From assembly GCF_947500325.1 (NCBI RefSeq), contig NZ_CANMRQ010000001.1, positions 1-64,000 of the forward strand: 64,000 bases of DNA, written 5' to 3'. The DNA is from an uncultured Lacinutrix sp. (GTDB lineage: Bacteria; Bacteroidota; Bacteroidia; Flavobacteriales; Flavobacteriaceae). The notes under the pieces are model-generated. The model saw only the letters and a list, made by a program, of their open reading frames with translations. It made no database searches and was not told the origin of the DNA. This document shows positions 28,144 to 53,614 of the stretch, in pieces (within the stretch, counting starts at the first letter, position 1; every line of letters begins with the position of its first letter). The translations under genes were made by a program, and so were the position numbers.

Positions 28144-28215
28144 GAGAGCAAGCAGGATTTGAACCTACAACCTCGGGTTTGCAACCCGCTATTTTTCCAG
28201 TTAAACTATTACTCC
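28144..28215 (-). tRNA. tRNA-Cys (GCA)
   Basis: manual cloverleaf: acceptor GGAGTAA/TTGCTCT (GU pairs), D GTTT/AAAT, anticodon loop TTGCAAA, T-loop TTCAAAT. Confidence 0.65.
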
Positions 28216-28229
28216 CCTATTTATATAAG

Positions 28230-28302
28230 TTGGATGCATGAGACTTGAACTCACAACCTCCTGCTTGAGAGGCAGGCGCTCTTCCAATTGAGCTAGCATC
28301 CA
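28230..28302 (-). tRNA. tRNA-Glu (CTC)
   Basis: acceptor TGGATGC/GCATCCA, D GCTC/GAGC, anticodon stem CCTGC/GCAGG loop CTCTCAA, T-loop TTCAAGT. Confidence 0.6.
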
Positions 28303-28309
28303 ATAAAAA

Positions 28310-28381
28310 TCACGTAAGTAGGACTCGAACCTACAAATTTAGAAATGTTGCCTAATGTTTTTCCAATTAAACTATTACGTG
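28310..28381 (-). tRNA. tRNA-like gene with non-canonical anticodon loop (CAACATT; paralog of the tRNA-Cys unit)
   Basis: perfect 7-bp acceptor CACGTAA/TTACGTG, D GTTT/AAAC, T arm GTAGG-TTCGAGT-CCTAC; position 33 is A, anticodon ambiguous. Confidence 0.45.
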
Positions 28382-28394
28382 TTTTAAAAAAGTA

Positions 28395-28467
28395 AAGAAC
28401 GTATGAGATTCGAACTCACAACCTCAGGATTGTATGTCAAGCGCTCTTCCAGTTGAGCTAACGTTCT
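28395..28467 (-). tRNA. tRNA-like gene with disrupted anticodon stem (loop CATACAA; paralog of the tRNA-Glu unit)
   Basis: perfect acceptor AGAACGT/ACGTTCT, D GCTC/GAGC, T arm GTGAG-TTCGAAT-CTCAT; anticodon stem CTTGA/TCCTG pairs only 3 of 5. Confidence 0.4.
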
Positions 28468-28477
28468 TTACAATACT

Positions 28478-29833
28478 TTACCAATTTTCTTCTCTATAAT
28501 TCTTTAAAAGTTTACCAACAAATATATTATTATTAGTTAAAGATTCAATTATAGGATGAATAACTCTTGATGCTCCGTCTACAGGATCTAAAGGTGGAAT
28601 ATAACCTTGTTCATATTGCTTTTCTCTTAGCGATTCTATGGCTCCAGTTGATACCCAACCTACATCTACAGCATTCATGTAGATATTATAATCTTCATAT
28701 TGTTTCGCTGAAGTTCTGGTTAACATATTTAAAGCAGCTTTTGTCATATTTGTATGTGGATGAAAAACCGTTTTATTAGCATAACTAAATTGACCTTCAG
28801 ATGACGTGACATTAATAATAAATTTTTGTTCAAATCTTGATGCTTTGATAAGTGGTGTTAATTCTTTTATTAAAAAGTAAGGTGATATTTGATTAATTAA
28901 ATTAACTTCTACTAATTCATACATAGAAATTTCATCTAAAGTTGAATTCCAACTATTTTTAGTACTCAAGTCTACAGGCTGACCAAATCGATTAAGCTTC
29001 AAATCTATATCCTTTACAGATGCTAATGCTTTATCTTTTTGCATTAATGGTGTTTTGTTTTCAATAAGCTTTTGAGGCTCATTAAAATTTGACAATAGCA
29101 TTTGCTCTTTTTTAATTATTGGAATATAATATTGATCCGAATATTTAATAGTTTGAGCAGCATTATTTATTAATATATCTAAACTTTCATAATTAGATTT
29201 GTAATACTCTATAAATAATTCTACAGATTTTAAGTGTTTTAAATCTAGTCCATAAACTATTAAGTTTTTACTCCAAGTTTCATAATCCTTTTCTTCTTTA
29301 AATAGGTTCAAAGCAGAAGCAGGAAAACGTGTTGTCACCAAAACATTAGCATTACATCTTAAAAAACGCAATGCAGTGGCATAACCAATTTTAACACGAC
29401 CACCAGTAATAATTACATTTCTAGATGTTAAATCAGCCTTTTTAAAGCGATTTTCATAATTTATTTCTGAACAATCTGGACACAATCTACTATAAAAAGA
29501 ATGAACTTGATTATAAGATTTATTACACGAGTAACAGTTTTTAGGAATATTAATAGTTTGATAAAATTGTTCTTTTTGCTTTAAACCATCATACTCCGAA
29601 ACATTGTTTAATGCATTTTGAGCAATTTTAGAATTTTTCAGAATTTCTAAATCATGTCCTTTTTTAAATTTATAACTAGATGATCTATTCTGCTTTTTAG
29701 CTCTTTTATGAATTTTTGAAATCAAAGCCCCAAATTTTTGGTTATCTGGATTATCAAGAGGATTCTCTTTTAACTCAGTCAATACCTTTAGACAAGATTC
29801 CCATTCTTTAGATGTGAAATTATATTGGTCCAT
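28478..29833 (-). CDS. SDR-family oxidoreductase with N-terminal extension containing a CxxC...CxxC zinc-ribbon
   Basis: VIITGGRVKIGYATA Rossmann motif, NNAAQT, plus CYSCN...CPDC; 451 aa. Confidence 0.6.
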   Translation of the reverse strand: MDQYNFTSKEWESCLKVLTELKENPLDNPDNQKFGALISKIHKRAKKQNRSSSYKFKKGHDLEILKNSKIAQNALNNVSEYDGLKQKEQFYQTINIPKNCYSCNKSYNQVHSFYSRLCPDCSEINYENRFKKADLTSRNVIITGGRVKIGYATALRFLRCNANVLVTTRFPASALNLFKEEKDYETWSKNLIVYGLDLKHLKSVELFIEYYKSNYESLDILINNAAQTIKYSDQYYIPIIKKEQMLLSNFNEPQKLIENKTPLMQKDKALASVKDIDLKLNRFGQPVDLSTKNSWNSTLDEISMYELVEVNLINQISPYFLIKELTPLIKASRFEQKFIINVTSSEGQFSYANKTVFHPHTNMTKAALNMLTRTSAKQYEDYNIYMNAVDVGWVSTGAIESLREKQYEQGYIPPLDPVDGASRVIHPIIESLTNNNIFVGKLLKNYREENW

Positions 29834-29841
29834 AATTATAT

Positions 29842-30537
29842 TTACAAAAAAGGTTCTAAAAAACCTATTAGCGATTTATCGTATTTGGACCATCGTATAC
29901 CATGGCCACTTTTTATTCTTATTTCAAAAACAATTTCATGTTTGTAATGATAAAACGTATTCCACCATGTATGATTATCTATTATATTATTTATAATGCC
30001 TTTTACTTTATCTAATTTTTGTTGTGGAGAACCTTTAATTTCTCCCCAAAAGGAATCTTCTGTTCTATCAATATGTTTTTCCCAAGCACGAACACCAACA
30101 CTAATTTGCTTATTATAATGACTCAAGCTATTGTCTAGCATCTCTTTTTTGGTCATTGGCAAACCTTCTACAGTTTTTATTGTTGCGGGCGTTTGTCGTT
30201 GCCCCATTAATAAAAGAACATGCTCAAAAGACACGCTTTGTATTGTACTGCAAATTATGTTTTTATTTATTACGTCGGAGACAAAATCTCGTTTATTAAT
30301 TTCTGAAATTGCATGTTTAAAAAATGAAAAAGAACCTTCTAAATTAGGAGCTATTTCTTCTGAAAAATAAGGGAATTGTACATTTTTTGACACACCATAT
30401 TTATGAAAATTAATACAGTTCTTTGAAAAAACACGTAGATAGTCTTCATGAAAAAACATAGAATTAACTGTTAACCAATCTTTTGAAAAAAGATCTTTTG
30501 AATCTAATAGTAGTTGTGTTAATAGAGTTGCTTTCAC
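29842..30537 (-). CDS. hypothetical protein
   Basis: 231 aa, no motif recognised. Confidence 0.4.
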   Translation of the reverse strand: MKATLLTQLLLDSKDLFSKDWLTVNSMFFHEDYLRVFSKNCINFHKYGVSKNVQFPYFSEEIAPNLEGSFSFFKHAISEINKRDFVSDVINKNIICSTIQSVSFEHVLLLMGQRQTPATIKTVEGLPMTKKEMLDNSLSHYNKQISVGVRAWEKHIDRTEDSFWGEIKGSPQQKLDKVKGIINNIIDNHTWWNTFYHYKHEIVFEIRIKSGHGIRWSKYDKSLIGFLEPFL

Positions 30538-31592
30538 TTTTTTATATTATAAAAGTTATTTCTCATTTCATAAACGAGTTTATTTACTAAATCTAAATCA
30601 GGTCTATCTATTAATTGAGAATTATCATAAATAGCATCAAGTTCTTCTTTCATAGTTTCTGCGCGAGACACTAAATCGTCGTATTCAAATTCAGCATTTT
30701 TTATTGATAACAAAAAGTCTCTATCTGTTCTTCGAACATTAATTTCATTATGTAATCCTATTTCTTTAGCCATATGTAATAACCTAAACGTATGCATCAT
30801 GTTTTTTGCATCATAGTTTTTACTGTGAGAAATATTACTTTTATAACGTTCTTCATTTCTTTTTGCTACCCAATCCCAATATTCTTTATATTTTTTGCAA
30901 TAGGTTGAATACCCATCTACATTAAAATATAAAACGGCAATAGGTTTTTCAGATTTTGGTACAGAACTTAAACACACTTCATTTCCGTTTTCTCTAACTA
31001 TACCATTATAATTTAATTCTTCATTATAAAATAGATTATAACAATCTTTCATATGAGCTAGATTTACTAATCCACAATGTTTTGGATCTAAATTCTTTTT
31101 CTTTACAAAATCTTTAAACACTATAGATTCCTTTTCTTCTCTTACATAACAAAAATCTTCCACAGACTTTCTTTCTTTTTCAACAGGGTTTACAATTTTC
31201 TTGTTTAATCCTCTTGCTTTTTTTATTTGAGTAAATGCATAATTAGCAAAGGTGTTCTTACAAAGTTTAGATACAAAATCTTTCTTTTTAATAGTATCAA
31301 ATATTGGATCCTTATAAAGTATGCACTCCTTAGGAACATTTAATAGTTCCATAATATTTGGATTATTTTTAGAGAGTAATTCAATAAACTTTCCTAATTC
31401 ATAATAAGCGATATCGTTCGTTTCATTATTAATTTGACCTATATAATTAAGCGAGTAAAATTGTGCTTTTGGTAAAATAAAAACACCTCTTATATCAGTA
31501 TCAGAAGTGGCAGTATCTAAGCCATAAGCTCTACTGCCACTAATACTTTCTAATATTATCGATCCTGATTTTTTTAATTCTTCTATTGTCAT
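30534..31592 (-). CDS. Pol-beta-superfamily minimal nucleotidyltransferase (RNA-repair-associated type, tentative RlaP-like)
   Basis: GSRAYGLDTATSDTDIRGV (GS...DxD NTase motif); 352 aa; overlaps neighbours by 4 nt. Confidence 0.55.
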   Translation of the reverse strand: MTIEELKKSGSIILESISGSRAYGLDTATSDTDIRGVFILPKAQFYSLNYIGQINNETNDIAYYELGKFIELLSKNNPNIMELLNVPKECILYKDPIFDTIKKKDFVSKLCKNTFANYAFTQIKKARGLNKKIVNPVEKERKSVEDFCYVREEKESIVFKDFVKKKNLDPKHCGLVNLAHMKDCYNLFYNEELNYNGIVRENGNEVCLSSVPKSEKPIAVLYFNVDGYSTYCKKYKEYWDWVAKRNEERYKSNISHSKNYDAKNMMHTFRLLHMAKEIGLHNEINVRRTDRDFLLSIKNAEFEYDDLVSRAETMKEELDAIYDNSQLIDRPDLDLVNKLVYEMRNNFYNIKK

Positions 31593-32335
31593 TGTATTTC
31601 TTTTAAGAAGAATGCATTAAATTCTTCAGGATTCGGCTTTTTATTAATTAAGTCGTTTTTAATACTATTATTTTCTGTAACAATATCTCTAACTAATGTA
31701 ATTAAAGTGTTGCTAACAGGTTCTGTACTTTTTTCAATATGTTTACTTTTTAAATGAATTAAATCATTTAATATAGTATGGTATTTCTCATCAATTATTG
31801 GGTACAATTCCGTGAACAAAACTGGCGGAATAGTTTCGTTTTTATAAACCCAATTAGCACACAAAGCAGTTCTTATGGCGTAGAAAAAACTTTTTAGCGT
31901 CATTTTATCTGTATCTAGTGTTTCTTCAAAACGGTAGCTCATACTATGGTAATGATAAAAACCAGATACAGGATTAAAGTTGTTTTCTGCCAAAGTTCTA
32001 ATTTCTTTTAAAAAATCGCCATTCGCTCTATACACAATAGGAGAAAATAACCAGCCTAAAAAAGACGCATTAGATTTTGCTAATAATTTTAAAGCTTTGC
32101 GAAATTCCCAACCAGAGCCATCAAGATCGTCTTCTGTCATGAACTCAATAGTATCTTTTTGTTCCCAAAGGTTTAAATACCACTCTTTTTTATGTTTATA
32201 TACAAAACGGATATCGTAATCTGAATCTGGTGACTCAAATCCCCAAGCTCTACTTCCAGATTCTACCGCAAATAGTATGTCTATATTTTTGTCTTTCTCT
32301 ATTTCAGAAAGTTTTTCTAGTATTTTAGTTTTCAT
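31589..32335 (-). CDS. Pol-beta-superfamily minimal nucleotidyltransferase (paralog of 30534-31592)
   Basis: ESGSRAWGFESPDSDYDIRFV motif; 248 aa. Confidence 0.55.
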   Translation of the reverse strand: MKTKILEKLSEIEKDKNIDILFAVESGSRAWGFESPDSDYDIRFVYKHKKEWYLNLWEQKDTIEFMTEDDLDGSGWEFRKALKLLAKSNASFLGWLFSPIVYRANGDFLKEIRTLAENNFNPVSGFYHYHSMSYRFEETLDTDKMTLKSFFYAIRTALCANWVYKNETIPPVLFTELYPIIDEKYHTILNDLIHLKSKHIEKSTEPVSNTLITLVRDIVTENNSIKNDLINKKPNPEEFNAFFLKEIQ

Positions 32336-33779
32336 TTTTCTTTAAATTTTTAAGATCTAGCATAATAGCTTCTCTATTAAATCCATCCAACTGTTTTTCG
32401 TAACATTTATCTAAGATATTTTTAAATTTTTTAGATGGCTTTAATCCTAAATCGATTAAATCTCTACCTAAAACTACAGGTTCAATTTTTCTTTCTCCAA
32501 ACTTTTTAAATAGCTCAAAGCATTTTTCGGAAGTTTCATGTCTATCTAAAATAACATTCCTTCCTGTTCTACCTGCAGAATCTGCTTTACTTTGCCAGCC
32601 TAAGATATCCAGTCTACACTTATTATGTAATCGTTTCCATGCAGCATCTTTTGCTTGAGAACGAAATAACTGACCAGGCATCATATGTAAACCTACAATT
32701 GTTTTTACTTTATTAATTAAATCTTTATCATTAGTTAAACGCATTAAAAAAGCTTCAGCTATTTTAATACCCGCAACGTCATGTCCATGAGCTTTTAAAT
32801 CTGGAGTTGTTGTAGAAGGTTTTCCAACATCATGTAATAATGCTCCAAACATATAAGCAAGCTTCCATTTTTCAGGAATTAAATGTCTTAATTTAGCAGC
32901 ATTGTCCAGAACCATTTTTGTATGAATCCATACATCGCCTTCAGGGTGCCATACTGGGTTCTGAGGACAACCGATTAAATCCTTTAATTCAGGAAAGTGT
33001 ATTAACCATCTTGAATCTTTTAAAAAATCTAGACCTATTGATGGTTTATCTGCTTTTAATAATAATTTTTCCCACTCAACAAAAACACGTTCTCTAGGCA
33101 ATTCAGAAAATGTATTTACCATTGATTGACATAAAGTCATTGTTCTTTTTTCTACTTCTCTTCCCTTTCTTGGCAATAATTGCATAATACGCAAGACTCT
33201 TAATGGGTCTTCAATAAAAGTATTTTTATCTGTTGCTTTTATTATTCCTTTTTTTAAATCCTCTATACCATTAAAAGGATCAACAATTCTGCCATTATGT
33301 AAATTTAAATACATACTGTTAATTGTTAAATCTCTTCTTTTTCCGGCTTCTTTAGGTGTCATTTCTTGATCTAATTCAATTTCAAATCCTTTATGTCCAA
33401 TTCCAATTTTATTTTCTCGTCTTGGAATAGAAATATCTATTTCTATATTATCTATTGTTGTTTTAATGACACCAAATGATTTCCCTACTAAATTACATGG
33501 TATATTTAATTCTTCAATTAAAACAACTAATTGAGGATAAGACAAACCGTAAACTTCAATGTCGATATCTTTTAGAGGTAATTTTTTTATACTATCTATA
33601 ACTGCTCCTCCAATTAACATTGCAATTCCGCCTTGTTCTTCTATTTCTTTTAATAAGTTTTTAAAGTTTTCTTCTTTAAAGACTTTATTTCTAAGGCTTT
33701 CAATATTCTTCATAATTTTTTCGCTGTTAAATAATCTAAGATTTCTATATATACTTATTTTCAATAATAGAGTGAGCAA
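32325..33779 (-). CDS. CCA-adding tRNA nucleotidyltransferase-like protein with C-terminal HD phosphohydrolase domain
   Basis: head motif GGAVID...DIDIEV, HD motif LLHDVGKP; 484 aa. Confidence 0.7.
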   Translation of the reverse strand: MLTLLLKISIYRNLRLFNSEKIMKNIESLRNKVFKEENFKNLLKEIEEQGGIAMLIGGAVIDSIKKLPLKDIDIEVYGLSYPQLVVLIEELNIPCNLVGKSFGVIKTTIDNIEIDISIPRRENKIGIGHKGFEIELDQEMTPKEAGKRRDLTINSMYLNLHNGRIVDPFNGIEDLKKGIIKATDKNTFIEDPLRVLRIMQLLPRKGREVEKRTMTLCQSMVNTFSELPRERVFVEWEKLLLKADKPSIGLDFLKDSRWLIHFPELKDLIGCPQNPVWHPEGDVWIHTKMVLDNAAKLRHLIPEKWKLAYMFGALLHDVGKPSTTTPDLKAHGHDVAGIKIAEAFLMRLTNDKDLINKVKTIVGLHMMPGQLFRSQAKDAAWKRLHNKCRLDILGWQSKADSAGRTGRNVILDRHETSEKCFELFKKFGERKIEPVVLGRDLIDLGLKPSKKFKNILDKCYEKQLDGFNREAIMLDLKNLKKNEN

Positions 33780-34440
33780 TAGATAATGTACTCGCTAAAT
33801 CTTCATCTTTTGTATTAAAGAATTCTTTTTCAATTCTAAATAGTATAATGTCTTTATAAAACCAATATGTTAAATCACTAATAATTTCTTTGCTTATATA
33901 GTATTGCAAACCATTAACTATAGATTCTGCTATAAATAGAGTACTATTAGAAGACTCCTTATTTTTCCATATGCTTAAAGCTTTATTTAACCCTGTATAT
34001 TTAGAAACAATATTTAATACACAACCTATTTGATGAAAAGTTGCATTTTCATTTGTAATTACATCTTCCCAAAGTTTAAGCAAGTAGTTATCAATAGTAA
34101 TAATTTCATTTCTATCCCAAGTCTCCCATTCGCTATAATTCAACTTTTCAAATGTTGTGAAATCATCTAATGTATCACTATTTGGGTCTTGCATTAACTC
34201 TAATATTCTAGGCAAAAAATGCTTGAAATCTTCTACATGTCCAAAAGTTGATATTGCAGAACGAGAGAAATGTCCAATATCATCATCATTTAAATCTTTT
34301 AAAGGTTTAGATAACAACACCCTTATTTCTTCATCTGTAACACAACAGTCACAACTTCTATCTCTTAAATCTCCCTTAATTGAGTATTTACTAAAAGTAT
34401 TATAAAGTTGATTTGTTAATTTTTCAAGTTGCGGTTTCAT
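33745..34440 (-). CDS. hypothetical protein
   Basis: 231 aa. Confidence 0.4.
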   Translation of the reverse strand: MKPQLEKLTNQLYNTFSKYSIKGDLRDRSCDCCVTDEEIRVLLSKPLKDLNDDDIGHFSRSAISTFGHVEDFKHFLPRILELMQDPNSDTLDDFTTFEKLNYSEWETWDRNEIITIDNYLLKLWEDVITNENATFHQIGCVLNIVSKYTGLNKALSIWKNKESSNSTLFIAESIVNGLQYYISKEIISDLTYWFYKDIILFRIEKEFFNTKDEDLASTLSIAHSIIENKYI

Positions 34441-34558
34441 TTAATCTATGGTTTATTTCAATCCTTATTTTCGGATTAAAAATATTTGCATTACAAATGT
34501 CGAAACCTAATACGCGGTCTTTTTGCGTAGTTTATTTTTTAAGTAGGCCAACTTTAAG

Positions 34559-35053
34559 TTATTCTATTTCATTTTTTAAATTATTAATAGACCTTCTTAA
34601 CAATGAAAAAAAACTTTCAAGATCTTTATTCCTCTTCACATAATATTTAAAAGAATTGTAATGTTGTTTTGTAATTATATCTCCATCAATAATTTTCACT
34701 AAACATGGAAACCCTTTGGTTTGAGTATCTTTAGCCAAGTATTCTAATAAAGGATCGTTGAAAGTATATGTTTCAATCTTTAGGCAGTCAATTTTGAAAT
34801 TATTTTCCTTAAAATAATTATTGAAGTTAAATTGATTGTATTCTTTATATAAAAGGAATATTTCACCATTTTTTTTACCTAATATATTTTTTAACTTTTC
34901 TTTTCTTTTTTTCCTATCTATAGAACTTGTTACTATTAAATAGGGGATAAAAATTAATGCTAAAACAGTGAGTATAGGGATAAAAATAGCAAAAACTAAA
35001 ATGATTAGAATTGATAGGAAAAAGCCTGCTGGTTGATATTCTCTAGGGTGCAT
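34559..35053 (-). CDS. small membrane protein (start moved to the internal Met that avoids an 89-nt overlap with rtcB)
   Basis: TM segment FFLSILIILVFAIFIPILTVLALIFIPYLIV; ORF track gives 34559-35194. Confidence 0.4.
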   Translation of the reverse strand: MHPREYQPAGFFLSILIILVFAIFIPILTVLALIFIPYLIVTSSIDRKKRKEKLKNILGKKNGEIFLLYKEYNQFNFNNYFKENNFKIDCLKIETYTFNDPLLEYLAKDTQTKGFPCLVKIIDGDIITKQHYNSFKYYVKRNKDLESFFSLLRRSINNLKNEIE

Positions 35054-35105
35054 TTTTTTAGGTTTTGTAAAAACAGACCAACCTAAGTTAGCCTGTTTTC
35101 TATTT

Positions 35106-36568
<1,463 letters not shown>

Positions 36569-45246: not shown

Positions 45247-45259
45247 ATTTATTTATATC

Positions 45260-45333: not shown

Positions 45334-45338
45334 TTTTG

Positions 45339-45425: not shown

Positions 45426-45434
45426 ATTTTTTTG

Positions 45435-45508: not shown

Positions 45509-45794
45509 CTATTTTATTTCAATGAACACCATAAAAAAAGCACCTCATTTTTATGGAAGGTGCTTTCTTTAAATCTATAAATACATCAACTCATGTATCT
45601 ATAACCTTCCTATTATATTTTATAAATCTCTCATCACAACTAGATGCGACCATATTATGCTTCGGCGAGCGAAACCAGAGATTTTGTTTAATTATATGTT
45701 GTAAATAATTTTCCATTATTGTTTTATTTGTTTTTGACGATGCAAAGATGAAACGCTTTTTTGAATTACACAAGAAAAATTTCATTTTAATTTA

Positions 45795-45992
45795 CTGATA
45801 ATCAATTAATTATGTTGTTTTTAGGCAATAGAATTCCTGTCCGTTTTTTAACGGATATTCAACATGTTATACAATAGTCTGTCTCCCAATTGTTTTGCTG
45901 TTTCAATGCTCTATTTTAATCTTTTTACTGTTCTATAATCATTTCAAAAAAAATTAAAAAAAAACGTCCAACTTTTAGGTTGGACGCTTAAT
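45795..45992 (-). repeat. repeat block 1 (upstream of the tRNA array): conserved core TTTTAGGCAATAGAATTCCTG(T/C)CCG plus GCGTCCAAC hairpin/terminator
   Basis: shares an about 48-bp core and a terminal hairpin with 53262-53447. Confidence 0.5.
45955..45990 (-). terminator. rho-independent terminator for the minus-strand gene 46229-47176
   Basis: minus strand reads GCGTCCAACC-TAAAA-GTTGGACG followed by T-run. Confidence 0.6.
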
Positions 45993-46176
45993 ATTCTATT
46001 TTTATTAGAGTTTAAATCATAATCTACTCTTTAAAAAAGATACAAAACGTCCTTCTTGGGGATTCAGTAAAATAACTGCTCCTCTATAATCGCATTCACT
46101 AAAGCGCGATATTGCTTGTTTATGTATTTCTTGTTTTATCATAATTATTTCCCACGAAAGTGGGAATCTGTTTTAT

Positions 46177-46222
46177 TTACACTACAAATATAATTGCAGT
46201 AAGACGCAATCTTTTTACGTAG
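46177..46222 (-). promoter_or_regulatory. shared operator/promoter module (fourth copy)
   Basis: ACTACGTAAAAAGATTGCGTCTTACTGCAATTATATTTGTAGTGTAA on the minus strand. Confidence 0.5.
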
Positions 46223-46228
46223 TTAAAA

Positions 46229-47176
46229 TTATTTTTTTGTTTTTAAATGAATCTCTCCTCTTTTTGGATTAAAAATCATTTGTTGAACAGTAATATCCAT
46301 TTTTACATTACCATCTGAAAGAATATCAAAATGATCTTGAATTGATTCTGGCGATTTAAACTTAATCATTTCGTTCACCCTTTTGTGCCTACCAGATGCT
46401 GTTAATTGCAAGGTGTCATTAGTTTGTTTATTTTCAGTTAACGATAAATATTCGTTAGTTACAATTAAGCTGTTACCCGCAGCTTTTCTTATAGAAAAAG
46501 TTGTTGGGGTTCGTTCTATAACTACATTTTCATCTTTATTTACGCCCACAACCATTAATAAACAATCTGAGGCAATAGTTGTTTCAGAAAGCATTACAAC
46601 CGCTTCATCAAATGTTTTTGCTTTTTCTAAAACATCCCTAATTAAAAACGTAATAGGAATAGCAAACTGAGGCGATTCATTACTTAATACAGCATTTAAA
46701 GTTATTGAAAATAATCTTGGTTTTACTCCTGATAACGCTCCAATAAAACCTGGCCAACTTACTAAAGAATATTGAGTTTCATTATCCTTCTTAAAGTCAA
46801 ATATTTTAGTAAACTTTCCCAGCATATTATTCTCTGACCACCAATCTAGATTTCTAGCATGAAGCTTTTCATTTTGATTAGTAACACAAAACGAAGTACA
46901 ACCAAAAACAAACTTTAATGCATCGTAATATAAGTTTGTAATTAATATTTCATTTTCTGAAAAATCACTATATCTTGAAACAGATTTAATTTCTTCTTGA
47001 TACTCTTTATTAATAAATAGTGTTTTATAGGTTTCTATATAGTCTTGGAAAATACCAGCACTACTCAAATCTTCTAAATAGTATTTGAAAAGACTATTCA
47101 TCTCTTTCCTATAGTCTTTAAGCCAATGCCACCTTTCTGATGGCTTAGCATTTAAATTTATTATAATTCGTTCCAT
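46229..47176 (-). CDS. Ntn-hydrolase, acid-ceramidase / choloylglycine-hydrolase-like (linear amide C-N hydrolase)
   Basis: candidate nucleophile in FGCTSFCVTNQ, 315 aa. Confidence 0.5.
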   Translation of the reverse strand: MERIIINLNAKPSERWHWLKDYRKEMNSLFKYYLEDLSSAGIFQDYIETYKTLFINKEYQEEIKSVSRYSDFSENEILITNLYYDALKFVFGCTSFCVTNQNEKLHARNLDWWSENNMLGKFTKIFDFKKDNETQYSLVSWPGFIGALSGVKPRLFSITLNAVLSNESPQFAIPITFLIRDVLEKAKTFDEAVVMLSETTIASDCLLMVVGVNKDENVVIERTPTTFSIRKAAGNSLIVTNEYLSLTENKQTNDTLQLTASGRHKRVNEMIKFKSPESIQDHFDILSDGNVKMDITVQQMIFNPKRGEIHLKTKK

Positions 47177-47211: not shown

Positions 47212-47787
47212 TTAGTTTTGCTGTTGCAAACACCAATGTAAAATTTTTGCAATATTTTTTGCGTCATCTACACCTCGGTGATGCGTCCCTTCTAGAGGTA
47301 TTTTTAAAATATTAAGAGCGCCTTTCATCCCTACTTTTTTATTTAAATCTTTTACCCAACTAAAATGAGTTTTTACATTAATATGTTTTTGAGATAATGG
47401 GTATTCCACACCTCGCAACTTACATTGTTTTTTCATCATATTTAAATCGTAAGCGCCATAGCTTGCCCAAGTGTAATGATTAGCACTGTAATCTTCTCTT
47501 AATTTTACACAAGCTTCTTTAAAAGTAATACCTTCTTTATCTAAAAGATCTTGAGTTATTGTTGTTAGCTCTGTACAAAACGAACTTACCTTAGAGCGTT
47601 CTGGCTTAATTAATATCCCTTCACTTTTTGTAATACTTCCTGTAATTATGTCTAAAACACAAATACCTATTTCTATTATTTCATTTACTTGACCATTTGG
47701 AATTTCCCCATTCCAACACGTAGCCTCTAAATCTATTATAATTATATTTTTATTGTAATTCATTATCTTATTTTTAAAAGTAGACAA
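47212..47787 (-). CDS. DEDD-family 3'-5' exonuclease (DnaQ/KapD-like)
   Basis: Exo I motif IIIDLEATC, downstream acidic motifs, conserved H near C-terminus; 191 aa. Confidence 0.65.
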   Translation of the reverse strand: MSTFKNKIMNYNKNIIIIDLEATCWNGEIPNGQVNEIIEIGICVLDIITGSITKSEGILIKPERSKVSSFCTELTTITQDLLDKEGITFKEACVKLREDYSANHYTWASYGAYDLNMMKKQCKLRGVEYPLSQKHINVKTHFSWVKDLNKKVGMKGALNILKIPLEGTHHRGVDDAKNIAKILHWCLQQQN

Positions 47788-48179: not shown

Positions 48180-48707
48180 TTATTTCTTTTTTTTCTTCTT
48201 CTTTTTGGATGTTTTCTTCTTATTAGGTTTCATTTTAGTTTTCACTCTTGATATTTCTGAGTTGATATAGCTTATAAAACCATCATTATATCCAAATTGT
48301 TTTGCTTTTTTTAGCGCTTTAATTGCTTTTTTGTAGTCTTGTGTTATTTCAAAAAGCTGGCCTTGATTTTTCCAAATAACCCCTTTATCAATACCTTTTA
48401 CTGTTAAAGCAAAATCAATTAATTTTTGAGCTTCATCAAAATCGTCATTATCCAATAACACTTGAATATATCTTGGATAAACACGTTGATAATCCATTTT
48501 GTTTGCTAATGCTTCTGCATAATATTGCTTCGCCTTTTCATAATCTCCAAACTGTTCTGCTTGTAAACGCGCCATGAGATACAATGCGTAAGCATTATTA
48601 CTTTCGTAAGACAAGGCATAGTTTAGATTCTCTACAGTTTCTTCTAACTCATATGGATAAGCATCAATAGCTTTTAGCACGTAATTATTTAATAAATTAG
48701 TTTCCAT
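48180..48707 (-). CDS. TPR-like helical protein with poly-Lys C-terminus
   Basis: 175 aa; KKKKKKK tail. Confidence 0.45.
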   Translation of the reverse strand: METNLLNNYVLKAIDAYPYELEETVENLNYALSYESNNAYALYLMARLQAEQFGDYEKAKQYYAEALANKMDYQRVYPRYIQVLLDNDDFDEAQKLIDFALTVKGIDKGVIWKNQGQLFEITQDYKKAIKALKKAKQFGYNDGFISYINSEISRVKTKMKPNKKKTSKKKKKKKK

Positions 48708-48711: not shown

Positions 48712-49407
48712 TTAGTTATTTAATTCATTGCGTAAATCATTTTTTAATGCGCAACGTTGTTTTTTATATTTTTTTACAACTGTATTCTTTTTAAAATTTG
48801 AGCCTTTAAAAACTTGTATAGGATTACCTCTTTCTAATTTTAAATGGTTTCCCCATTGGTTTTTAATACTCATTTGTAAAGCTTCTAATTGTATTGCGCT
48901 TACTTTTTCTTGCAAGCGTATTTTTGCTATTTTTTTATTTTGATGTTGTGAGCGGCTATCCATAACTAATACTTGTGTTTTAGTTAGTTTATGAATAGCC
49001 CTAATAGCGGAGCTCACTTTATTTACATGCTGTCCTCCAGGTCCAGAACTACGAGTTGCTTGATATGTAATATCTTTGTCATGAATTTGAAATTCTTGAC
49101 TTTGTTCTATCTCATATAAACCCACAAACCAATTTTTACGTTTATGATTTGGCCTAAAAGCCGAAACGCCTATCCACTGTATTGTTCCTTTCCATTGACT
49201 TAAAAACACCTCTAGGTTTTCTCCTTTTAATTGAACAGTAACCGACTGCAATGTCAAATTCTCTATTCCTTTTTCCCTTTGTAATATTTTATAATCAATA
49301 GCATTGCGTTTTACAGCTTCTAAAAATTGCTTTAAAACTTGAGCCACAACCCAACAACATTCTGCTGGTCCTCGACCTGAGGTTATTTGTATTATTTTAG
49401 TATTCAT
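48712..49407 (-). CDS. prfH: peptide chain release factor homologue PrfH (GGQ-containing; RtcB2-associated)
   Basis: matches E. coli PrfH block-by-block: GPAECC, WKGTIQWIGVSAFRPNHKRKNWFVG, RSSGPGGQHVNK, ERGNP; 231 aa. Confidence 0.85.
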   Translation of the reverse strand: MNTKIIQITSGRGPAECCWVVAQVLKQFLEAVKRNAIDYKILQREKGIENLTLQSVTVQLKGENLEVFLSQWKGTIQWIGVSAFRPNHKRKNWFVGLYEIEQSQEFQIHDKDITYQATRSSGPGGQHVNKVSSAIRAIHKLTKTQVLVMDSRSQHQNKKIAKIRLQEKVSAIQLEALQMSIKNQWGNHLKLERGNPIQVFKGSNFKKNTVVKKYKKQRCALKNDLRNELNN

Positions 49408-49966
49408 TTTTATATACTTTTTCTAAAGGATTTTTAGACAGTAATACATTACCAACAGGATTTTCACCTTTCGCAATTAATTGTAACGCTGCTTTTACTG
49501 CCCAGCATTTATCGCTAGAATGAATGTTAGAGTAGAAGCTTAATAACGTTTTTGGCTCAACTAATGTCCAACCATTTACTTTTATAACTTCTACTGTCGC
49601 AGATTCAAAAAAATCTATAGTTACTCTTACTTGTTTTCCTGTTTCTAGCCAATCTATTTTCTCGTAACGTCTAAAATTTTCGTTACTTGGCATATGGTCA
49701 TATCGTGTCCACACTTTTTCGAAACCATTGGCTGCTAGTACTACCATCACTTCTGCAACATCTTTTGGATGTACAAAAATGTCTATATCCTTATGATCAT
49801 GCGCATGTTTGTATTCTGTATGGTCTTCTGGTGACATAAAATGCCATGCCCAACCTCCTGAAATAATAATCCATGCTTTTAATTTATTTAAAATGTCCAA
49901 ACCCTTTTCTATTCTATAGTTTGGCCATTGCTCTCCGTATCTTTTTATGTTATGATTTGCTCCCAT
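49397..49966 (-). CDS. hypothetical protein, possible minimal nucleotidyltransferase (GG...DIDI motif)
   Basis: ISGGWAW...DHKDIDIFV; 189 aa; overlaps prfH start. Confidence 0.35.
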   Translation of the reverse strand: MGANHNIKRYGEQWPNYRIEKGLDILNKLKAWIIISGGWAWHFMSPEDHTEYKHAHDHKDIDIFVHPKDVAEVMVVLAANGFEKVWTRYDHMPSNENFRRYEKIDWLETGKQVRVTIDFFESATVEVIKVNGWTLVEPKTLLSFYSNIHSSDKCWAVKAALQLIAKGENPVGNVLLSKNPLEKVYKNEY

Positions 49967-49992
49967 AATTCCTTTGTTTTTAAAGCAAAAAT

Positions 49993-51384
49993 TTACCTAG
50001 CCATTCTCACTATTTTTGGTGTAAACTTGCCAACAACCTCAACTAATTCTAATTGATTTTGCATCACTTTTTCAATGTTTTTATATGCCATTGGCGCCTC
50101 GTCAATACCGCCTCCAATTAAAGAGACGTCATGCTTTTGCAATTCTTTTTTTATTGCACTTTGCGTTAATGTCATTTTACATTGTCGTCTTGACAATAAA
50201 CGTCCTGCACCGTGAGATGCCGATTGTAAACTCTCTGTATTACCTAATCCTCTAACTATAAATCCTGGCGCCGTCATAGATCCAGGAATAATACCTAGCT
50301 CTCCTTTTTTTGCTGGTGTCGCTCCTTTTCTATGTACTATACATTCTTGACCATTTACGTCTTGTTTCCAAGCGAAATTGTGATGATTTTCTATTTTGGC
50401 AATTGGTCTTTCTCCTAATAATTTACCTATGCGTTTATGAATATCATCATGGCAAGCTTTTGCATAATCTCCAGCCAAATTCATAGCTAGCCAATATTCT
50501 TGTCCGTCGTGAGTATTTAAATCTAACCATGCTAAATGCTGTACATGTTTTGGTAACGGACATTGCTTTGTTGCCAAATATGTATAATGCTTAGCGATGT
50601 TAGCACCCAAACCTCTTGAACCACTATGTGATAAAACACCTAAGTATTCTCCTATTGGTAAATCCCATTCGTTATTTACATCTAGAATACTTACTTGACC
50701 AAATTCGACAAAATGATTGCCGCCACCCGAAGTTCCTAATTGCTTATAAGCTTTATCTTTTAAGCGTTTTACTAACGGAATCGTTTTAAACTCTTCACGT
50801 TCAAAAACTGGATCATCATGTTTTATTTTGTGCGTTTCGTACATCCCAAATTTGGTGTGCTCCGACAAAATATTTTCCAATTGATGCTTCTTTCCTTTTA
50901 AATAAGAGGCTTTAACGGGATATATAGTTAAACACATTCTGCACCCAATATCTACGCCTACACCATAAGGAATAACAGCATCTTTTGTTGCTAATACGCC
51001 TCCAATTGGCAATCCATATCCTACATGTGCATCTGGCATTAAAGCACCAGCAACTGCAATTGGTAGTTTTAAAGCATCGAATAATTGATACTTTGCTTTA
51101 TCGTCGATTTCATTGTCTCCATAGATTTGAAATGGTGCGCGATGTGTATTTAATACTTGCTTTTTTACCACTACAGGATCTAATAAACTTTCGGCTATTT
51201 TACCCCAAACACCATCACCTTTATAAGCCTCAGGATTTAATAATACTTTCTTTGCTTCTATTAATATTTTTTCTTTTTTTATTCTTTTCTGGTAACGATT
51301 AATTTGACCTAAAGTCACATTAATACTATTGTTTTTCGGAAAGCCTAACTTGATTAAGTCTTTCCCGCTTAATTTCTTTCCCAT
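49993..51384 (-). CDS. rtcB: RtcB-family RNA ligase, PrfH-associated paralog (RtcB2-type)
   Basis: RtcB motifs PDAHVGYG, GCRMC, GGGNHF, HSGSRGLG, HHN; 463 aa; same operon as prfH. Confidence 0.8.
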   Translation of the reverse strand: MGKKLSGKDLIKLGFPKNNSINVTLGQINRYQKRIKKEKILIEAKKVLLNPEAYKGDGVWGKIAESLLDPVVVKKQVLNTHRAPFQIYGDNEIDDKAKYQLFDALKLPIAVAGALMPDAHVGYGLPIGGVLATKDAVIPYGVGVDIGCRMCLTIYPVKASYLKGKKHQLENILSEHTKFGMYETHKIKHDDPVFEREEFKTIPLVKRLKDKAYKQLGTSGGGNHFVEFGQVSILDVNNEWDLPIGEYLGVLSHSGSRGLGANIAKHYTYLATKQCPLPKHVQHLAWLDLNTHDGQEYWLAMNLAGDYAKACHDDIHKRIGKLLGERPIAKIENHHNFAWKQDVNGQECIVHRKGATPAKKGELGIIPGSMTAPGFIVRGLGNTESLQSASHGAGRLLSRRQCKMTLTQSAIKKELQKHDVSLIGGGIDEAPMAYKNIEKVMQNQLELVEVVGKFTPKIVRMAR

Positions 51385-51432
51385 TGTTTTAGTTTTTAAT
51401 GAGAAGGTGAAAATTAAATCACCTTCTCTTTT

Positions 51433-52806
51433 TTAATTCATCATTGTTTTCAAAATGAAATACATAATCCAAAAGATTATTTTCAATACCAAAGTAGAAT
51501 CATAATTTTGCTTCTCAGTCATTTGTCTACGTTCAACTAGCCTAGCATATGCTTGCTGTTGACCATGAGCTTGGTATGGTCTTTCGTATTCCATCTCTTT
51601 TTTTCGCCTAACTTGTGAATTGTTAATCCAGTGATTTATTAATTCAACAGATTTACTGTCAGGATCTTGATTACACTTTGCTTTAGCTTGAACAATTGTA
51701 TAGCTTGGTAATTCTATTTCTAAAGTAACCAAGCGTTTCATTGGTTTACCTTCAATTTCTTGTCTTAAAGAAAAAATTGAACACCTTCCTTCATCACAAT
51801 CGTCATCGTATTCAGAAACACAGTGTTGCATTTCATTTCCTTCATCATAAAGCTCCCCTGAACTTAAAAGCTCTTCAGTTTTATAAATAACTTTTTTATT
51901 ATCTAAAGTTTCTTCAAAGTATAAAGGCTTAATTCCTGATGAGCTCCAAGAAAATTCCTCCCCTTTTTCTTTTAAGTAAACACTACGATGCCATTCTTGC
52001 GTTTGATTCAACAATGAGCTGAATGTTCTATTTTTCATTGAAAGCGACTGATTATCACGATATTTATATGCTAAATAATCAACAACTTCATCTAATTCAT
52101 TAACATTTAAATTTTCTTCTTTTGAAAAAAACTGAACAACTGATGCCCAAAAACATTCTTGCTCTTCTCTTATAATTGATAACCTTGAAAATGCAATCAT
52201 TTTAGAGGTTTTTGTTGAAGCTCCATAACCTAATGCTTGTGCGTAACGTAAAGCTTCATTAACCGACAAAAATGAAGGAGCATTTCTAAACTCATGCGCC
52301 ATTTTATCTGTTAGCTTTATTGGCATATTAGATAAGCTTTTTACACTTTTTCCTTTTCCCAACTGAACGTACCAAAACATGTGTTTTTTTTCACTTATAT
52401 AAAATGAGTTTTCTAAAAACGTTGGTGTTACATATAATGCAAAACAGTGTTTTATTACTGCGCTTAGTTGTTTTTCTTCTTGCAAACATTCGTTTTGCCA
52501 ATCTTCAATATTTCTTACTATTTTATTACCAAAACCACTTATATTATGAAGAACACTAACACTGTTATAATTTCTTAATAATGCATAACACTTTTGGTTG
52601 TACAAGTGAATTAATAACCTCTTAAAAGTTTCTCTTTTCCATGTGTATTTTCTCTTGCTGGTTTTAGAAAAAAATTCACGAAGCATTGATTCTATAGAGC
52701 CTTTATAACGAGTAGGCTTATTATTTTCGTTATATATTTTTTCAACTAATTTTATATAACTCCCTTTATGTAAGTGTTTGTTCTCTACATTCTTATTTGT
52801 TTTCAT
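51433..52806 (-). CDS. hypothetical protein, possibly PcfJ-like (tentative)
   Basis: 457 aa; C-terminal MQHCVSEY...C.EGRCSIF Cys/His cluster. Confidence 0.35.
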   Translation of the reverse strand: MKTNKNVENKHLHKGSYIKLVEKIYNENNKPTRYKGSIESMLREFFSKTSKRKYTWKRETFKRLLIHLYNQKCYALLRNYNSVSVLHNISGFGNKIVRNIEDWQNECLQEEKQLSAVIKHCFALYVTPTFLENSFYISEKKHMFWYVQLGKGKSVKSLSNMPIKLTDKMAHEFRNAPSFLSVNEALRYAQALGYGASTKTSKMIAFSRLSIIREEQECFWASVVQFFSKEENLNVNELDEVVDYLAYKYRDNQSLSMKNRTFSSLLNQTQEWHRSVYLKEKGEEFSWSSSGIKPLYFEETLDNKKVIYKTEELLSSGELYDEGNEMQHCVSEYDDDCDEGRCSIFSLRQEIEGKPMKRLVTLEIELPSYTIVQAKAKCNQDPDSKSVELINHWINNSQVRRKKEMEYERPYQAHGQQQAYARLVERRQMTEKQNYDSTLVLKIIFWIMYFILKTMMN

Positions 52807-53261
52807 TTTAAAGTTCTTTACTAGATTATTTTCTATGTAAAGCCACTCAAATTTTTAATACACATTGTTAAATTGTATGCATTTATAATCATATCTTAAT
52901 TTGGCTTTTACTATTTAATGAGAAGCTGCATTTTATATTAGCTTTCGTTTCAACATCCCTTAAAAGGGTTCACTTCGAACAATTGATATCCGGAATTTTT
53001 AAGCCTAAACTACTTTTGAAAAAAAGGCATACAAAAAAGTCCGAAACTTTTGGCTTCGGACTCTTTGTATGATAAAAATAGATCTCTATTTATCTGGAAA
53101 GAAGTCTCGAAGCGAGTATACTAAAGAACCTAGTTCTTCAATTATACTTTTGTTTACATTGGTATTAAACATTTTACTTCGTTTTAATATTTATTTTGTT
53201 GCAGTATTGCGGTGCAAATATAGAATGTAATTTTTGAAAAATCCAAATAAAAAATAAAATT

Positions 53262-53447
53262 AATTTGCTGAAAATCAATTAGTTAAATTGATTTTAGGCA
53301 ATAGAATTCCTGCCCGAATTTCTTCAGATATGTAATTCCTTGACAGTGTGCTATGTAATTAATCAATACACAATTTTTAGGCATTTACAGGTTTTTATTT
53401 TTTTTATAAAAAAAAAGCGTCCAAATTAAATTATTTGGACGCTTTCA
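53262..53447 (-). repeat. repeat block 2, paralogous to 45795-45992
   Basis: TTTTAGGCAATAGAATTCCTGCCCG core and GCGTCCAAATAATTTAATTTGGACGC hairpin. Confidence 0.5.
53409..53447 (-). terminator. rho-independent terminator for the minus-strand gene 53615-54676
   Basis: minus strand: GCGTCCAAATAATTTAATTTGGACGC followed by T9. Confidence 0.6.
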
Positions 53448-53614
53448 CTATTTTTTATTTATATATACCTACTAAATATATCTACAATAGCGCAATTTTG
53501 CGTCCTTATTATGTGATTTAAATAGATTCATATAGGTGTGTTTATTTTTTTATGCTGTACAAATATGTGAATTTTATTTGAAATATTCACAATAAGTATA
53601 AATGTATTTATTTT

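Follow-up and report, generated by a model that had tools for sequence, protein, structure and literature searches.

A chromosomal RNA-repair and tRNA-array island of Flavobacteriaceae with a shared palindromic operator, a divergent GOLLD RNA and a candidate WYL regulator

The chromosome of an uncultured Lacinutrix sp. carries an RNA-repair and tRNA island of ~30 kb, which spans about 26.8-56.9 kb of the 64-kb stretch of DNA analyzed here (positions 1 to 64,000 of contig NZ_CANMRQ010000001.1; hereafter, the window). A preliminary description of the same sequence had set the limits at 28144-53460, and these had to be moved outwards. At the left end lies the gene of a DUF434-DUF5616 protein (26791-27399, minus strand, as are the other genes and RNAs of the island unless stated; Pfam DUF5616, E = 9.2e-48), a conserved marker of this end, and a gene at 56615-56911 codes for a 98-amino-acid (aa) protein that is very highly conserved in related islands. 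Nearly all island genes with an assignable function act on RNA. Related loci (L followed by a number) were fetched through homologues of two island proteins, the RNA ligase Rnl2 and a 610-aa protein termed P610.

ARAGORN detected 22 tRNA genes, all on the minus strand, with 4 of them at 28143-28468 and 18 at 43778-45508. Rfam added a 113-nucleotide (nt) tRNA-like RNA (40564-40676) with an insertion of ~51 nt in the anticodon arm. The preliminary description had counted ~25 tRNA or tRNA-like genes and had left the calls to be checked with covariance models; the array is real, all 22 genes score at or above the Rfam tRNA gathering score, and the total comes down to 23. The 18 tRNAs cover 17 amino acids and are packed into 1.73 kb on one strand with spacers of mostly 3-13 nt, as in L-type arrays (L-arrays), and their order is common to the window, L001 and L002. 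Many of them begin with U or A instead of G. An encoded CCA end is absent from 21 of the 22 island tRNA genes (17 of 18 in the large array, and all four in the small one); since such tRNAs need CCA addition for maturation, the presence of an island-encoded CCA-adding enzyme makes sense. The small array consists of Val-TAC, Cys-ACA, Glu-CTC and Cys-GCA. The ACA anticodon of its tRNA-Cys is unusual, and its Glu-CTC and Val-TAC genes are mutually similar (76% identity), which suggests a recent duplication followed by an anticodon change.

The RNA-repair enzymes named in the preliminary description (two RtcB ligases, PrfH, an Rnl2-type ligase, a CCA-adding enzyme with an HD domain and a DEDD exonuclease) were confirmed by Pfam and NCBIfam matches, and its three minimal nucleotidyltransferases (NTases) proved to be two RlaP proteins (PF10127) and one small Pol-beta-type NTase with weak matches. 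The RtcB2 ligase (49993-51384; Pfam RtcB, E = 2.5e-81) is the first gene of an RtcB-NTase-PrfH-TPR module. It is followed by the small NTase (189 aa, 49397-49966; weak matches to Pfam NTP_transf_5 and Aminoglyc_resit), by release factor H, PrfH (231 aa, 48712-49407; Pfam RF-1, E = 3.6e-21), and by a TPR protein (48180-48707; Pfam TPR families) that is kept in related islands. PrfH scores 221.7 bits on the TIGR03072 equivalog model (cut-off 166.65), which identifies it as a PrfH-type release factor without the GTPase-interacting domain. The rtcB and prfH genes are on the same strand and are separated by the NTase gene alone, the ends of which overlap or abut its neighbours, as in an operon.

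The Rnl2-family RNA ligase (41934-42929; Pfam RNA_ligase, E = 5.7e-23, and T4_Rnl2_C, E = 9.7e-16) scores 181.5 bits on TIGR02307, slightly below the cut-off of 197.15. RtcB1 (35106-36506; Pfam RtcB, E = 4.3e-37) is a divergent ligase with 26% identity to RtcB2. When aligned to Pyrococcus horikoshii RtcB, it keeps the motifs GDGNHF, HHGSRG, HAKGAT and PHGAGR, which we take to include the metal-binding and GMP-histidine residues. The CCA-adding enzyme with an HD domain (32325-33779; Pfam PolyA_pol, E = 8.3e-16, PolyA_pol_RNAbd and HD) has the multifunctional CCA addition/repair protein as its top NCBIfam match, under the cut-off of that model. The two RlaP NTases, of 248 aa (31589-32335; PF10127, E = 7.2e-66, 222.8 bits, full-length match) and 352 aa (30534-31592; E = 2.1e-23, 83.8 bits, match in the N-terminal half), are both above the PF10127 gathering cut-off of 23 and share the island with RtcB and Rnl2. 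A DEDD 3'-5' exonuclease (47212-47787; Pfam RNase_T, E = 5.8e-16) and a PF04308 RNase H-like protein (43036-43521; E = 3e-33) complete the set; among the related loci examined, the PF04308 gene directly follows the tRNA array in L001-L003 and L010-L013, as it does in the window.

Several island promoters have a common operator, a 20-bp imperfect palindrome that reads CTACGCAAAAnnATTGCGTA in the gene direction, with an ..ATATTTG.. box of the Bacteroidetes -7 type ~12 nt downstream of each copy. It was first seen as a promoter-sized element at four places in a repeat search (families D2 and D9). The preliminary description, which had placed a shared operator on four genes, was correct and slightly understated the case: with up to 3 mismatches, CTACGCAAAAnnATTGCGTA occurs at 5 sites in the window versus 0.07 expected, all of them inside the island and each followed by a TTTG box. 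The sites precede the gene of a 231-aa protein (34511-34530), RtcB1 (36549-36568), the gene of a 120-aa protein (37553-37572), a GOLLD RNA in an open reading frame (ORF)-free region (41893-41912) and the leader of the 18-tRNA array (46203-46222). A degenerate sixth copy, CTACGCAAATTATTTACGTT (54796-54815, plus strand), with 4 mismatches and one perfect half-site, faces a regulator gene; its position upstream of a TTTG box and of the ATG of that gene suggests autoregulation.

The same palindrome was found in loci of Psychroserpens, Chryseobacterium, Kordia, Aquimarina, Winogradskyella, Bizionia and Tenacibaculum. Across genera it precedes non-homologous genes, namely RtcB, the P610 leader, the tRNA-array leader and GOLLD; it also stands before DUF434-DUF5616 genes in Kordia (L006), before Band_7 and TROVE/Ro60 genes in Chryseobacterium glaciei (L003) and before a Band_7 gene in L007. 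Sixty of the 69 full-length genome loci with a P610 homologue carry it (87 sites versus 0 in shuffled copies), and Chryseobacterium loci without tRNA arrays still do. Across two Flavobacteriales families the palindrome itself is kept, with variable sequence around it.

One operator copy lies in an inserted cassette (36574-37600; repeat families D2, D7 and D16) in which the duplicated operator and promoter are accompanied by two ORFs, of 120 aa and 154 aa, and by a truncated copy of the RtcB 5' end. The duplicated sequence comprises the RtcB1 promoter/operator and the ~90 nt at the start of the RtcB1 coding sequence, with 80-93% identity (36415-36596 versus 37063-37152 plus 37519-37600). The duplication frames the 120-aa/154-aa cassette, and the second copy of the RtcB1 start ends early at a stop codon.

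The gene that the sixth operator faces codes for a WYL-WCX-PhyH protein (54857-56578, plus strand, divergent from the island; WYL, E = 1.7e-11, WCX, E = 2e-7, PhyH, E = 7.7e-10). It is the best candidate for the repressor, because it is the only regulator conserved beside the loci and has an operator copy in its own promoter. WYL-WCX genes also stand beside the related islands L001, L002 and L004-L008, and operators are present in the divergent region of the WYL gene in L001, L004, L006 and L007. A palindromic operator both at the target promoters and at the regulator's own promoter is, at the level of sequence, the arrangement that a WYL regulon of the CapW, BrxR, DriD or PafBC type would have. 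The PhyH (2-oxoglutarate/Fe(II) dioxygenase) domain is C-terminal on the regulator of Lacinutrix and of some relatives (L002 81-1805; L014, L015 and L016), and the regulator in Chryseobacterium, Kordia and Aquimarina is a short form of ~340 aa. The L002 island also holds a gene for an AlkB-like dioxygenase.

The 18-tRNA array is preceded by a conserved leader of ~700 nt (45509-46225), with 74% mean column identity in an alignment with four related loci (A4) and a fold z of -3.9. The operator and promoter come first in the leader, followed by small ORF 1 and a strong terminator (45989-45962). Next is a second, promoter-like TTTG box, ahead of a 41-aa ORF and a hairpin; another terminator follows, which a terminator scan placed ~25 nt ahead of the first tRNA (tRNA-Lys). 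The 41-aa ORF is conserved and has its stop codon inside the 12-bp hairpin, and the GGAAGGU near its end is complementary to ACCUUCC in the 5' arm of the terminator; such pairing could permit ribosome-dependent attenuation of the array. Part of the leader is one copy of a 101-nt direct repeat (76% identity; family D6; 45758-45858 and 53231-53331), the two copies of which flank a 7.5-kb segment with the PrfH module and the gene of a PcfJ-like protein.

The island occupies the same chromosomal site in another genus. In Psychroserpens (L001) it lies between the same flanking genes, with the flexirubin-type KS (84% identity), FabA (78%) and SDR (78%) genes on one flank and an ABC transporter (71%) and an FG-GAP/T9SS protein (53%) on the other; the right flank is also common to L009 and L015. 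The DUF434-DUF5616 protein is 82% identical in L001, where it is also at the island end. The 98-aa protein, for which a weak match to Peptidase_S24 (E = 0.05) is the sole Pfam match, is 88-97% identical in L015, L006, L020 and L021 (Kordia and other flavobacterial islands). Its Kordia homologue is positioned just upstream of the leader of the P610 gene.

A recurring order, RtcB2-(NTase)-PrfH-TPR-tRNA array-PF04308-(Rnl2, R2K)-GOLLD-leader-P610-RtcB1-...-CCA-RlaP-RlaP-DUF434, is observed in whole or in part in five or more genera. Loci of Bizionia, Winogradskyella, Tenacibaculum, Psychroserpens and uncultured Flavobacteriaceae show it with gain or loss of modules. In Bizionia (L013), for example, RtcB1, CCA and RlaP come after P610. 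The RtcB2-NTase-PrfH-TPR order is kept in L011, L013, L029 and L044, where the small NTase is 72-91% identical, and L012 has the same order minus the NTase. Among the 69 full-length genome loci with a P610 homologue, WYL is present in 62, RtcB in 66 and RlaP in 61, and the core of WYL, RtcB, P610 and RlaP recurs in Chryseobacterium. Within the fetched loci, tRNA arrays were seen in Psychroserpens, Winogradskyella, Bizionia, Tenacibaculum, Aquimarina and one Chryseobacterium locus; most Chryseobacterium loci have no array within 10 kb.

A 1.7-kb ORF-free gap (40266-41933) holds an RNA of ~950 nt (40913-41860) that matches the GOLLD family (Rfam RF02032). The match at 40913-41390 covers the full model (1-416) with 131.9 bits (E = 6e-35), under the gathering score of 150. 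Read along the transcript, a variable 5' part precedes the conserved core, which starts near 41710, and the 3' domain (41390-40913). Homologues with 135-139 bits were found in L002, L010, L011 and L013, and the alignment of the five RNAs has a conserved core of ~820 nt, a variable 5' end and 82% mean column identity. RNAalifold predicted 261 pairs from the five sequences, 59 of them with compensatory changes on both sides. The linker occurs in two alternative forms among the five loci. The tRNA array is ~1.9 kb upstream and the tRNA-like RNA ~240 nt downstream. The size (>800 nt), the conserved 3' domain, the variable 5' region and linker and the tRNA neighbours are those of GOLLD, and by these sequence features we accept the RNA as a divergent GOLLD.

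Each of the five GOLLD-bearing loci has an array of at least 14 tRNAs, and in all five GOLLD has its own operator and promoter. GOLLD was not found in the other array-bearing loci (L001, L012, L029 and L044); it is an optional cassette of the island. The linker at ~41235-41320 of the window, and also that of L011, contains three hairpins, one T-arm-like, one acceptor-stem-like with an ACCA loop and one D-arm-like. They resemble a circularly permuted tRNA-like module, with a fold energy not better than that of shuffled sequence (z = -0.6), and L002, L010 and L013 have unrelated sequence at this position. In searches of viral DNA, blastn with GOLLD alone gave no match in 50,697 phage records, a strict pattern had 0 matches in viral contigs, and a loose 15-base pattern had 120 matching viral loci, none of which was recognised by nhmmer with the flavobacterial GOLLD profile and which are probably chance matches. 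GOLLD is known as a 14-mer nanocage encoded near tRNA islands in phages and prophages, with a function that is not known (PMC12286853, PMC12990946). Nothing in the literature searched (Burroughs and Aravind, 2016 and Morgado, 2020 were outside it) links GOLLD to RNA ligases or RNA repair.

P610 (38433-40265) has no match in Pfam, NCBIfam, PHROG or PDB sequences. Its N-terminal domain is helical, and its C-terminal beta domain is possibly TerD-like. The protein is 67-68% identical between Lacinutrix and Chryseobacterium, with the less conserved Rnl2 at 47%, and the family has 1342 representatives at 50% clustering. A structured leader precedes the gene (40266-40690), in which the tRNA-like RNA is followed by four tandem hairpin units around GTTCCTAT; counterparts are found at L002 13690-14116, L004 9604-10000, L006 9455-10000 and L007 9697-10000. 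A structured leader with 3-6 tandem units around GTTCCT(A/G)T is indeed present upstream of every P610 homologue, and at most loci a tRNA-like RNA with an insertion precedes the units. The motif has a density of 7.5 per kb in the 500 nt upstream of P610 homologues versus 0.03 per kb elsewhere in the same loci.

Within a unit, the arm just before UCCUAU pairs with the arm after UUAC. From unit to unit and from locus to locus the arm pairs vary yet stay complementary (GAAAGU/ACUUUC, AAGCGU/ACGCUU, AGGUGU/ACACCU, GGGAGU/ACUCCC and others), and it is these nine or more distinct Watson-Crick arm pairs that support the stems, a test that admits G-U pairs being weak in such A+T-rich sequence (235 of 309 units versus 169 of 309 in the control). 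Besides the tRNA model, no Rfam family matches the leader. One unit holds a T-arm-like hairpin (CTGGTTCGATTCCAG), and the last unit stops ~20 nt ahead of the P610 ATG.

In the phage collection, P610 homologues are present in three phages only (five database records). Two of these, Synechococcus phages S-CRM01 (L209 8977-10818) and S-CBWM1 (L210 8980-10836), carry the gene in the middle of a giant tRNA array, at 31-34% identity, and directly upstream of it, at 8619-8733, S-CRM01 has a YrlA-like match that is weak (35.9 bits, E = 2e-4). We hypothesize that P610 is a tRNA-related ribonucleoprotein; together with its cognate leader RNA it may be a loose counterpart of Ro60 with Y RNA, found from Flavobacteriales to cyanophages. 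The S-CRM01 array also contains an 'Rnase H' gene, and in S-CBWM1 a metallophosphoesterase and a tRNA nucleotidyltransferase are encoded just ahead of the array and a cyanobacterial-type tmRNA at 17198-17476.

GOLLD, the WYL regulator and P610 with its leader had been missed by the preliminary description. With these included, the data suggest that (i) the enzymes are of known kinds, and the finding of GOLLD among them is new; and (ii) the island is likely to be a resident chromosomal regulon of Flavobacteriaceae for RNA damage and translation stress, and not a prophage. From the protein families, the conserved operator, the synteny and the GOLLD RNA that we observe, we infer the repressor, its inducer and the biochemical roles in Lacinutrix as follows. 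The WYL-WCX-PhyH protein would bind CTACGCAAAAnnATTGCGTA at five or more island promoters and at its own promoter, and would keep the island off. Because WYL domains are thought to sense nucleic-acid ligands, damaged RNA, e.g. fragments with 2',3'-cyclic phosphate ends, is proposed as the inducer. Upon induction, the 18-tRNA array without CCA ends and the CCA/HD enzyme would replace or decoy the tRNA pool. RtcB seals 2',3'-cyclic-phosphate/5'-OH breaks and Rnl2 seals nicks with 3'-OH and 5'-phosphate ends, and the two RtcB ligases and Rnl2 would reseal cut RNA. The two RlaP proteins and the small NTase would rebuild trimmed 3' ends ahead of ligation, and the RtcB2-NTase-PrfH-TPR module would release and repair ribosomes with cut 16S rRNA. 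Processing would be done by the DEDD and PF04308 nucleases, and the GOLLD RNA and P610 with its tRNA-like/hairpin leader would be two further operator-linked components. Published work on the components is consistent with such a course: according to one proposal, transcription factors with WYL or CARF domains sense cyclic-phosphate-ended RNAs and regulate RNA repair, and those with WYL domains also control conflict systems (PMC9503650). RlaP extends trimmed tRNA halves by nucleotide addition prior to ligation (PMC12776372), and RtcB2-PrfH repairs ribosomes cut by colicin E3 (PMC9304027, PMC9223846). The CCA/HD enzyme, Rnl2 and the DEDD exonuclease are in keeping with a toolkit that heals and seals RNA ends.

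Several findings weigh against this interpretation. Pfam finds no helix-turn-helix domain in the N-terminus of the regulator (residues 1-150), and the link between the WYL protein and the operator is drawn from their co-occurrence. A transcript from the operator at 46222 would meet two intrinsic terminators before the first tRNA, so that the operator may control the small ORF only and some other mechanism may gate the array. RtcB2 scores 146.2 bits on TIGR03073, the model of PrfH-paired RtcB, with a cut-off of 271.8. The island has no Pnkp-type 5'-kinase that would prepare 5'-OH ends for Rnl2-type sealing, about one third of its genes have no assignable function, and no ribotoxin or other trigger was identified.

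The preliminary description had read the locus as a dedicated counter-ribotoxin island. The repair side of that reading is supported by the family roles of the components, by the 21 CCA-less tRNA genes and by the lack of prophage genes, and we regard it as reasonable but unproven. It is possible, if clearly the less probable case, that the island responds to translational stress in general (antibiotics, starvation or the cell's own toxin-antitoxin RNases) and that its extra tRNAs serve as a buffer or sponge and not as replacements. In Anabaena, a tRNA array and rtcB are induced by translation inhibitors, and a sponge for toxin RNases was suggested by the authors (PMC8421152); the E. coli Rtc system is reported to respond to ribosome-targeting antibiotics (PMC12606134); and a 41-aa ORF followed by a terminator just ahead of the array is a layout that could sense ribosome stalling. 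However, the action of PrfH-RtcB2 has been shown only for colicin E3-cut ribosomes (PMC9304027), and the activity of RlaP fits nucleases that trim the ends after cutting (PMC12776372). The general-stress explanation largely overlaps with the regulon proposed above and differs from it in the trigger only, and a ribotoxin and general translational stress are not distinguishable as triggers from sequence.

We consider it improbable that the locus is a decayed prophage or a phage-derived tRNA region which kept its tRNA array, GOLLD and repair genes after losing the structural genes. Reports of GOLLD and of long tRNA arrays typically concern phages and prophages (PMC12286853), homologues of Rnl2, PF04308 (77 phage records, mostly of large phages) and P610 occur in large phages, many tRNAs of the array have U or A as their first nucleotide, no CCA is encoded in 17 of the 18, and the 101-nt direct repeats lie on either side of the 7.5-kb PrfH-module stretch. 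Against such an origin, the absence of integrase, terminase and capsid genes noted earlier holds for all ORFs of at least 100 aa in the whole 64-kb window, in which Pfam detected no integrase, transposase, terminase, capsid or tail family, and neither Pfam nor PHROG a phage replication gene. Phage structural or replication genes among the hypothetical proteins would have made this an ordinary prophage region, as the preliminary description had pointed out; nine island hypotheticals have no PHROG match, and in the scan of the hypotheticals and the PcfJ-like protein only the latter matched, to families of unassigned role. The repeat search found no flanking repeat that bounds the whole island, and when the tRNA/GOLLD/Rnl2 region was compared by blastn with the 50,697 phage records, the only matches were short ones to tRNAs and Rnl2. 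The G+C content of the island (0.28-0.35) is like that of its flanks, except over the tRNAs. Moreover, the chromosomal site and flanking genes are the same in another genus, the gene order is common to five or more genera, and the promoters carry a host-type regulon operator that is also present in Chryseobacterium loci without tRNA arrays. The locus is a resident chromosomal block of Flavobacteriaceae, and a prophage reading is rejected, although individual modules may be of ancient phage origin.

That the clustering has no functional meaning, the locus being a variable hot spot for unrelated accessory genes and the shared sequence a duplicated promoter, is very improbable, for despite the visible duplication of a promoter and an RtcB 5' end, the genes specific to the window (those of the PcfJ-like and 353-aa proteins and the 120-aa and 154-aa ORFs) and the unrelated insertion in the neighbouring 10.3-26.7 kb block, the operator is conserved as a palindrome across two Flavobacteriales families before non-homologous genes, the gene order is conserved across genera and nearly all assignable genes act on RNA.

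The preliminary description also held that the island matches no named system, and here it overstated the novelty, since L-arrays with TrcR (PMC8421152, PMC10272220) and jumbo-phage kits (PMC7824862) precede it. Operons of RlaP with a ligase have been published as well, and so have long tRNA arrays that spread horizontally and are co-regulated with rtcB. L-arrays occur in Bacteroidetes among other phyla, and their cyanobacterial neighbourhoods are enriched in RNA-processing genes (PMC8421152). The Anabaena L-array has operator repeats in common with rtcB, which are bound by the repressor TrcR (PMC8421152, PMC10272220), and TrcR also controls slipin and RimK genes (PMC10272220). The island resembles the system of Anabaena sp. 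PCC 7120 in its long same-strand tRNA array apart from dispersed tRNA genes, in its neighbourhood of RNA-processing genes, in a common operator on the array promoter and rtcB, in an ATP-grasp gene (RimK in Anabaena) and, in L003 and L007, in an operator-bearing Band_7 gene, the counterpart of slipin (Band-7). TrcR regulates its own gene, and the candidate WYL repressor likewise has an operator at its own promoter. In contrast, TrcR is a ribbon-helix-helix protein that acts on 9-nt direct repeats, whereas the island has a WYL-WCX(-PhyH) candidate and a 20-bp palindrome; the repair genes of the island are physically clustered with the array; and the island goes beyond Anabaena with PrfH, Rnl2, RlaP, the CCA-adding enzyme, GOLLD and P610. 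Induction of the Anabaena array has been demonstrated, whereas that of the island is predicted from its genes.

RtcB2-PrfH modules had been taken for two-gene operons, but a 2019 catalogue (Burroughs and Aravind, PMC6514570) already lists PrfH-RtcB neighbourhoods that include a TPR protein and an uncharacterised Pol-beta NTase. The RtcB2-NTase-PrfH-TPR order of the island is the same; unlike those neighbourhoods and the E. coli RtcB2-PrfH pair, the module is embedded in a larger operator-controlled island and its RtcB is below the cut-off of the PrfH-paired model. GOLLD within tRNA arrays is known from Mycobacterium (PMC6582537) and from phages (Morgado, 2020, as cited in PMC12286853). As in those bacterial and phage arrays, GOLLD is in or beside a large tRNA cluster and has a possible tRNA-like element in its variable linker, but the island belongs to Bacteroidota, occupies a conserved chromosomal site, has neither phage genes nor an HNH endonuclease, and its GOLLD has an operator in common with RNA-repair genes.

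The RNA-repair kits of jumbo phages (PMC7824862) consist of tRNAs together with RtcB, Rnl1/2, RlaP, a CCA-adding enzyme, Thg1 and Ro. The island shares the tRNAs, RtcB, Rnl2, RlaP and the CCA-adding enzyme with these kits, and among its relatives Thg1 and Ro/TROVE are present in L004 and L005 and Ro/TROVE also in L003; it differs in being chromosomal, in its candidate host-type repressor and in the inclusion of the ribosome-rescue factor PrfH. The RtcR-regulated rsr-yrlBA-rtcBA operon of Salmonella (PMC7790460) is likewise a repair operon built around RtcB; it has a sensor-regulator of its own, and its tRNA-like non-coding RNA, YrlA, is paired with the protein Ro60. However, Pfam found neither the RtcR CARF/sigma-54-dependent activator nor the RtcA cyclase among the window ORFs, the candidate regulator of the island is a WYL protein, and the protein beside its tRNA-like RNA is P610 and not Ro60. 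The island is distinct from all of these in that the modules are united at one conserved chromosomal site, that GOLLD has the same operator and P610 a structured leader, and that a WYL regulator with a palindromic operator would take the place of TrcR or RtcR.

We advance only tentatively, and as a good deal less certain than the regulon itself, the idea that GOLLD, which has had no known function since 2009, is a working member of an RNA-damage response and not phage-specific, and that P610 with its tRNA-like/hairpin RNA is a new array-tied ribonucleoprotein. Since GOLLD has its own operator at five of five loci, its nanocage could act on attacked tRNAs or ribosomes by sequestering them, as a decoy or as a store. 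The island mainly extends the catalogues of RNA repair with a large and well-ordered Flavobacteriaceae version, and it gives P610 and GOLLD a place in a defined regulon that is probably amenable to genetic analysis. Here GOLLD is in a non-phage and apparently repressor-controlled regulon of genera with cultured members (Winogradskyella, Bizionia, Psychroserpens and Lacinutrix), so that a regulator knockout or an inducer screen could reveal its timing and partners. With one operator conserved alongside a WYL regulator across Flavobacteriales, there is a defined system in which to ask what signal WYL domains sense in RNA repair. The P610 family, unannotated and tied to RtcB, to a unique leader and to two cyanophage arrays, is a good candidate for a new tRNA-related function.

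The remaining genes of the island are of diverse kinds. They code for an R2K-clade ATP-grasp protein (37578-38360; Pfam R2K_3, E = 3e-23, and R2K_2, E = 3.5e-17), an Ntn-hydrolase-like protein of the AAT/CBAH families (46229-47176; Pfam AAT, E = 2.6e-11), a pair of 211-aa and 231-aa proteins (33745-35194; no family match, weak homologues in L001 and L002; the operator at 34511-34530 precedes the second), and an SDR-family protein with an N-terminal extension together with a further 231-aa protein (28478-30537; Pfam adh_short, E = 1.2e-21). The PcfJ-like protein (51433-52806; Pfam PcfJ, E = 4.9e-15) and the 353-aa protein (53615-54676) are window-specific, and the latter has no match in Pfam, NCBIfam, PHROG or PADLOC and no homologue in the related loci.

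To the left of the island, a block that is absent from L001 (10351-26658) holds a five-gene DUF3686-AAA operon (16642-26658, plus strand) as well as genes for TPR proteins and for a histidine kinase. The last protein of this operon, of 1629 aa, combines DUF3686, DUF7902 and AAA+, and the other four have no Pfam match. As a known defence system the operon was discarded, with no PADLOC match and no mention of DUF3686 in the literature search. Because it is absent from the related loci, it was treated as a separate insertion; it is perhaps an accessory conflict system.

A second structured RNA, Flavo-1 (RF01705), occurs above its gathering score in four related loci (L003 18791-18866, L007 17457-17584, L008 17295-17422 and L011 15012-15087), and its neighbour in L003, L007 and L008 is a Band_7 or TROVE/Ro60 gene. 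Two more RNA matches were seen in L003, a tRNA-like RNA upstream of the Band_7 gene and, downstream of TROVE, a weak YrlA-like match.

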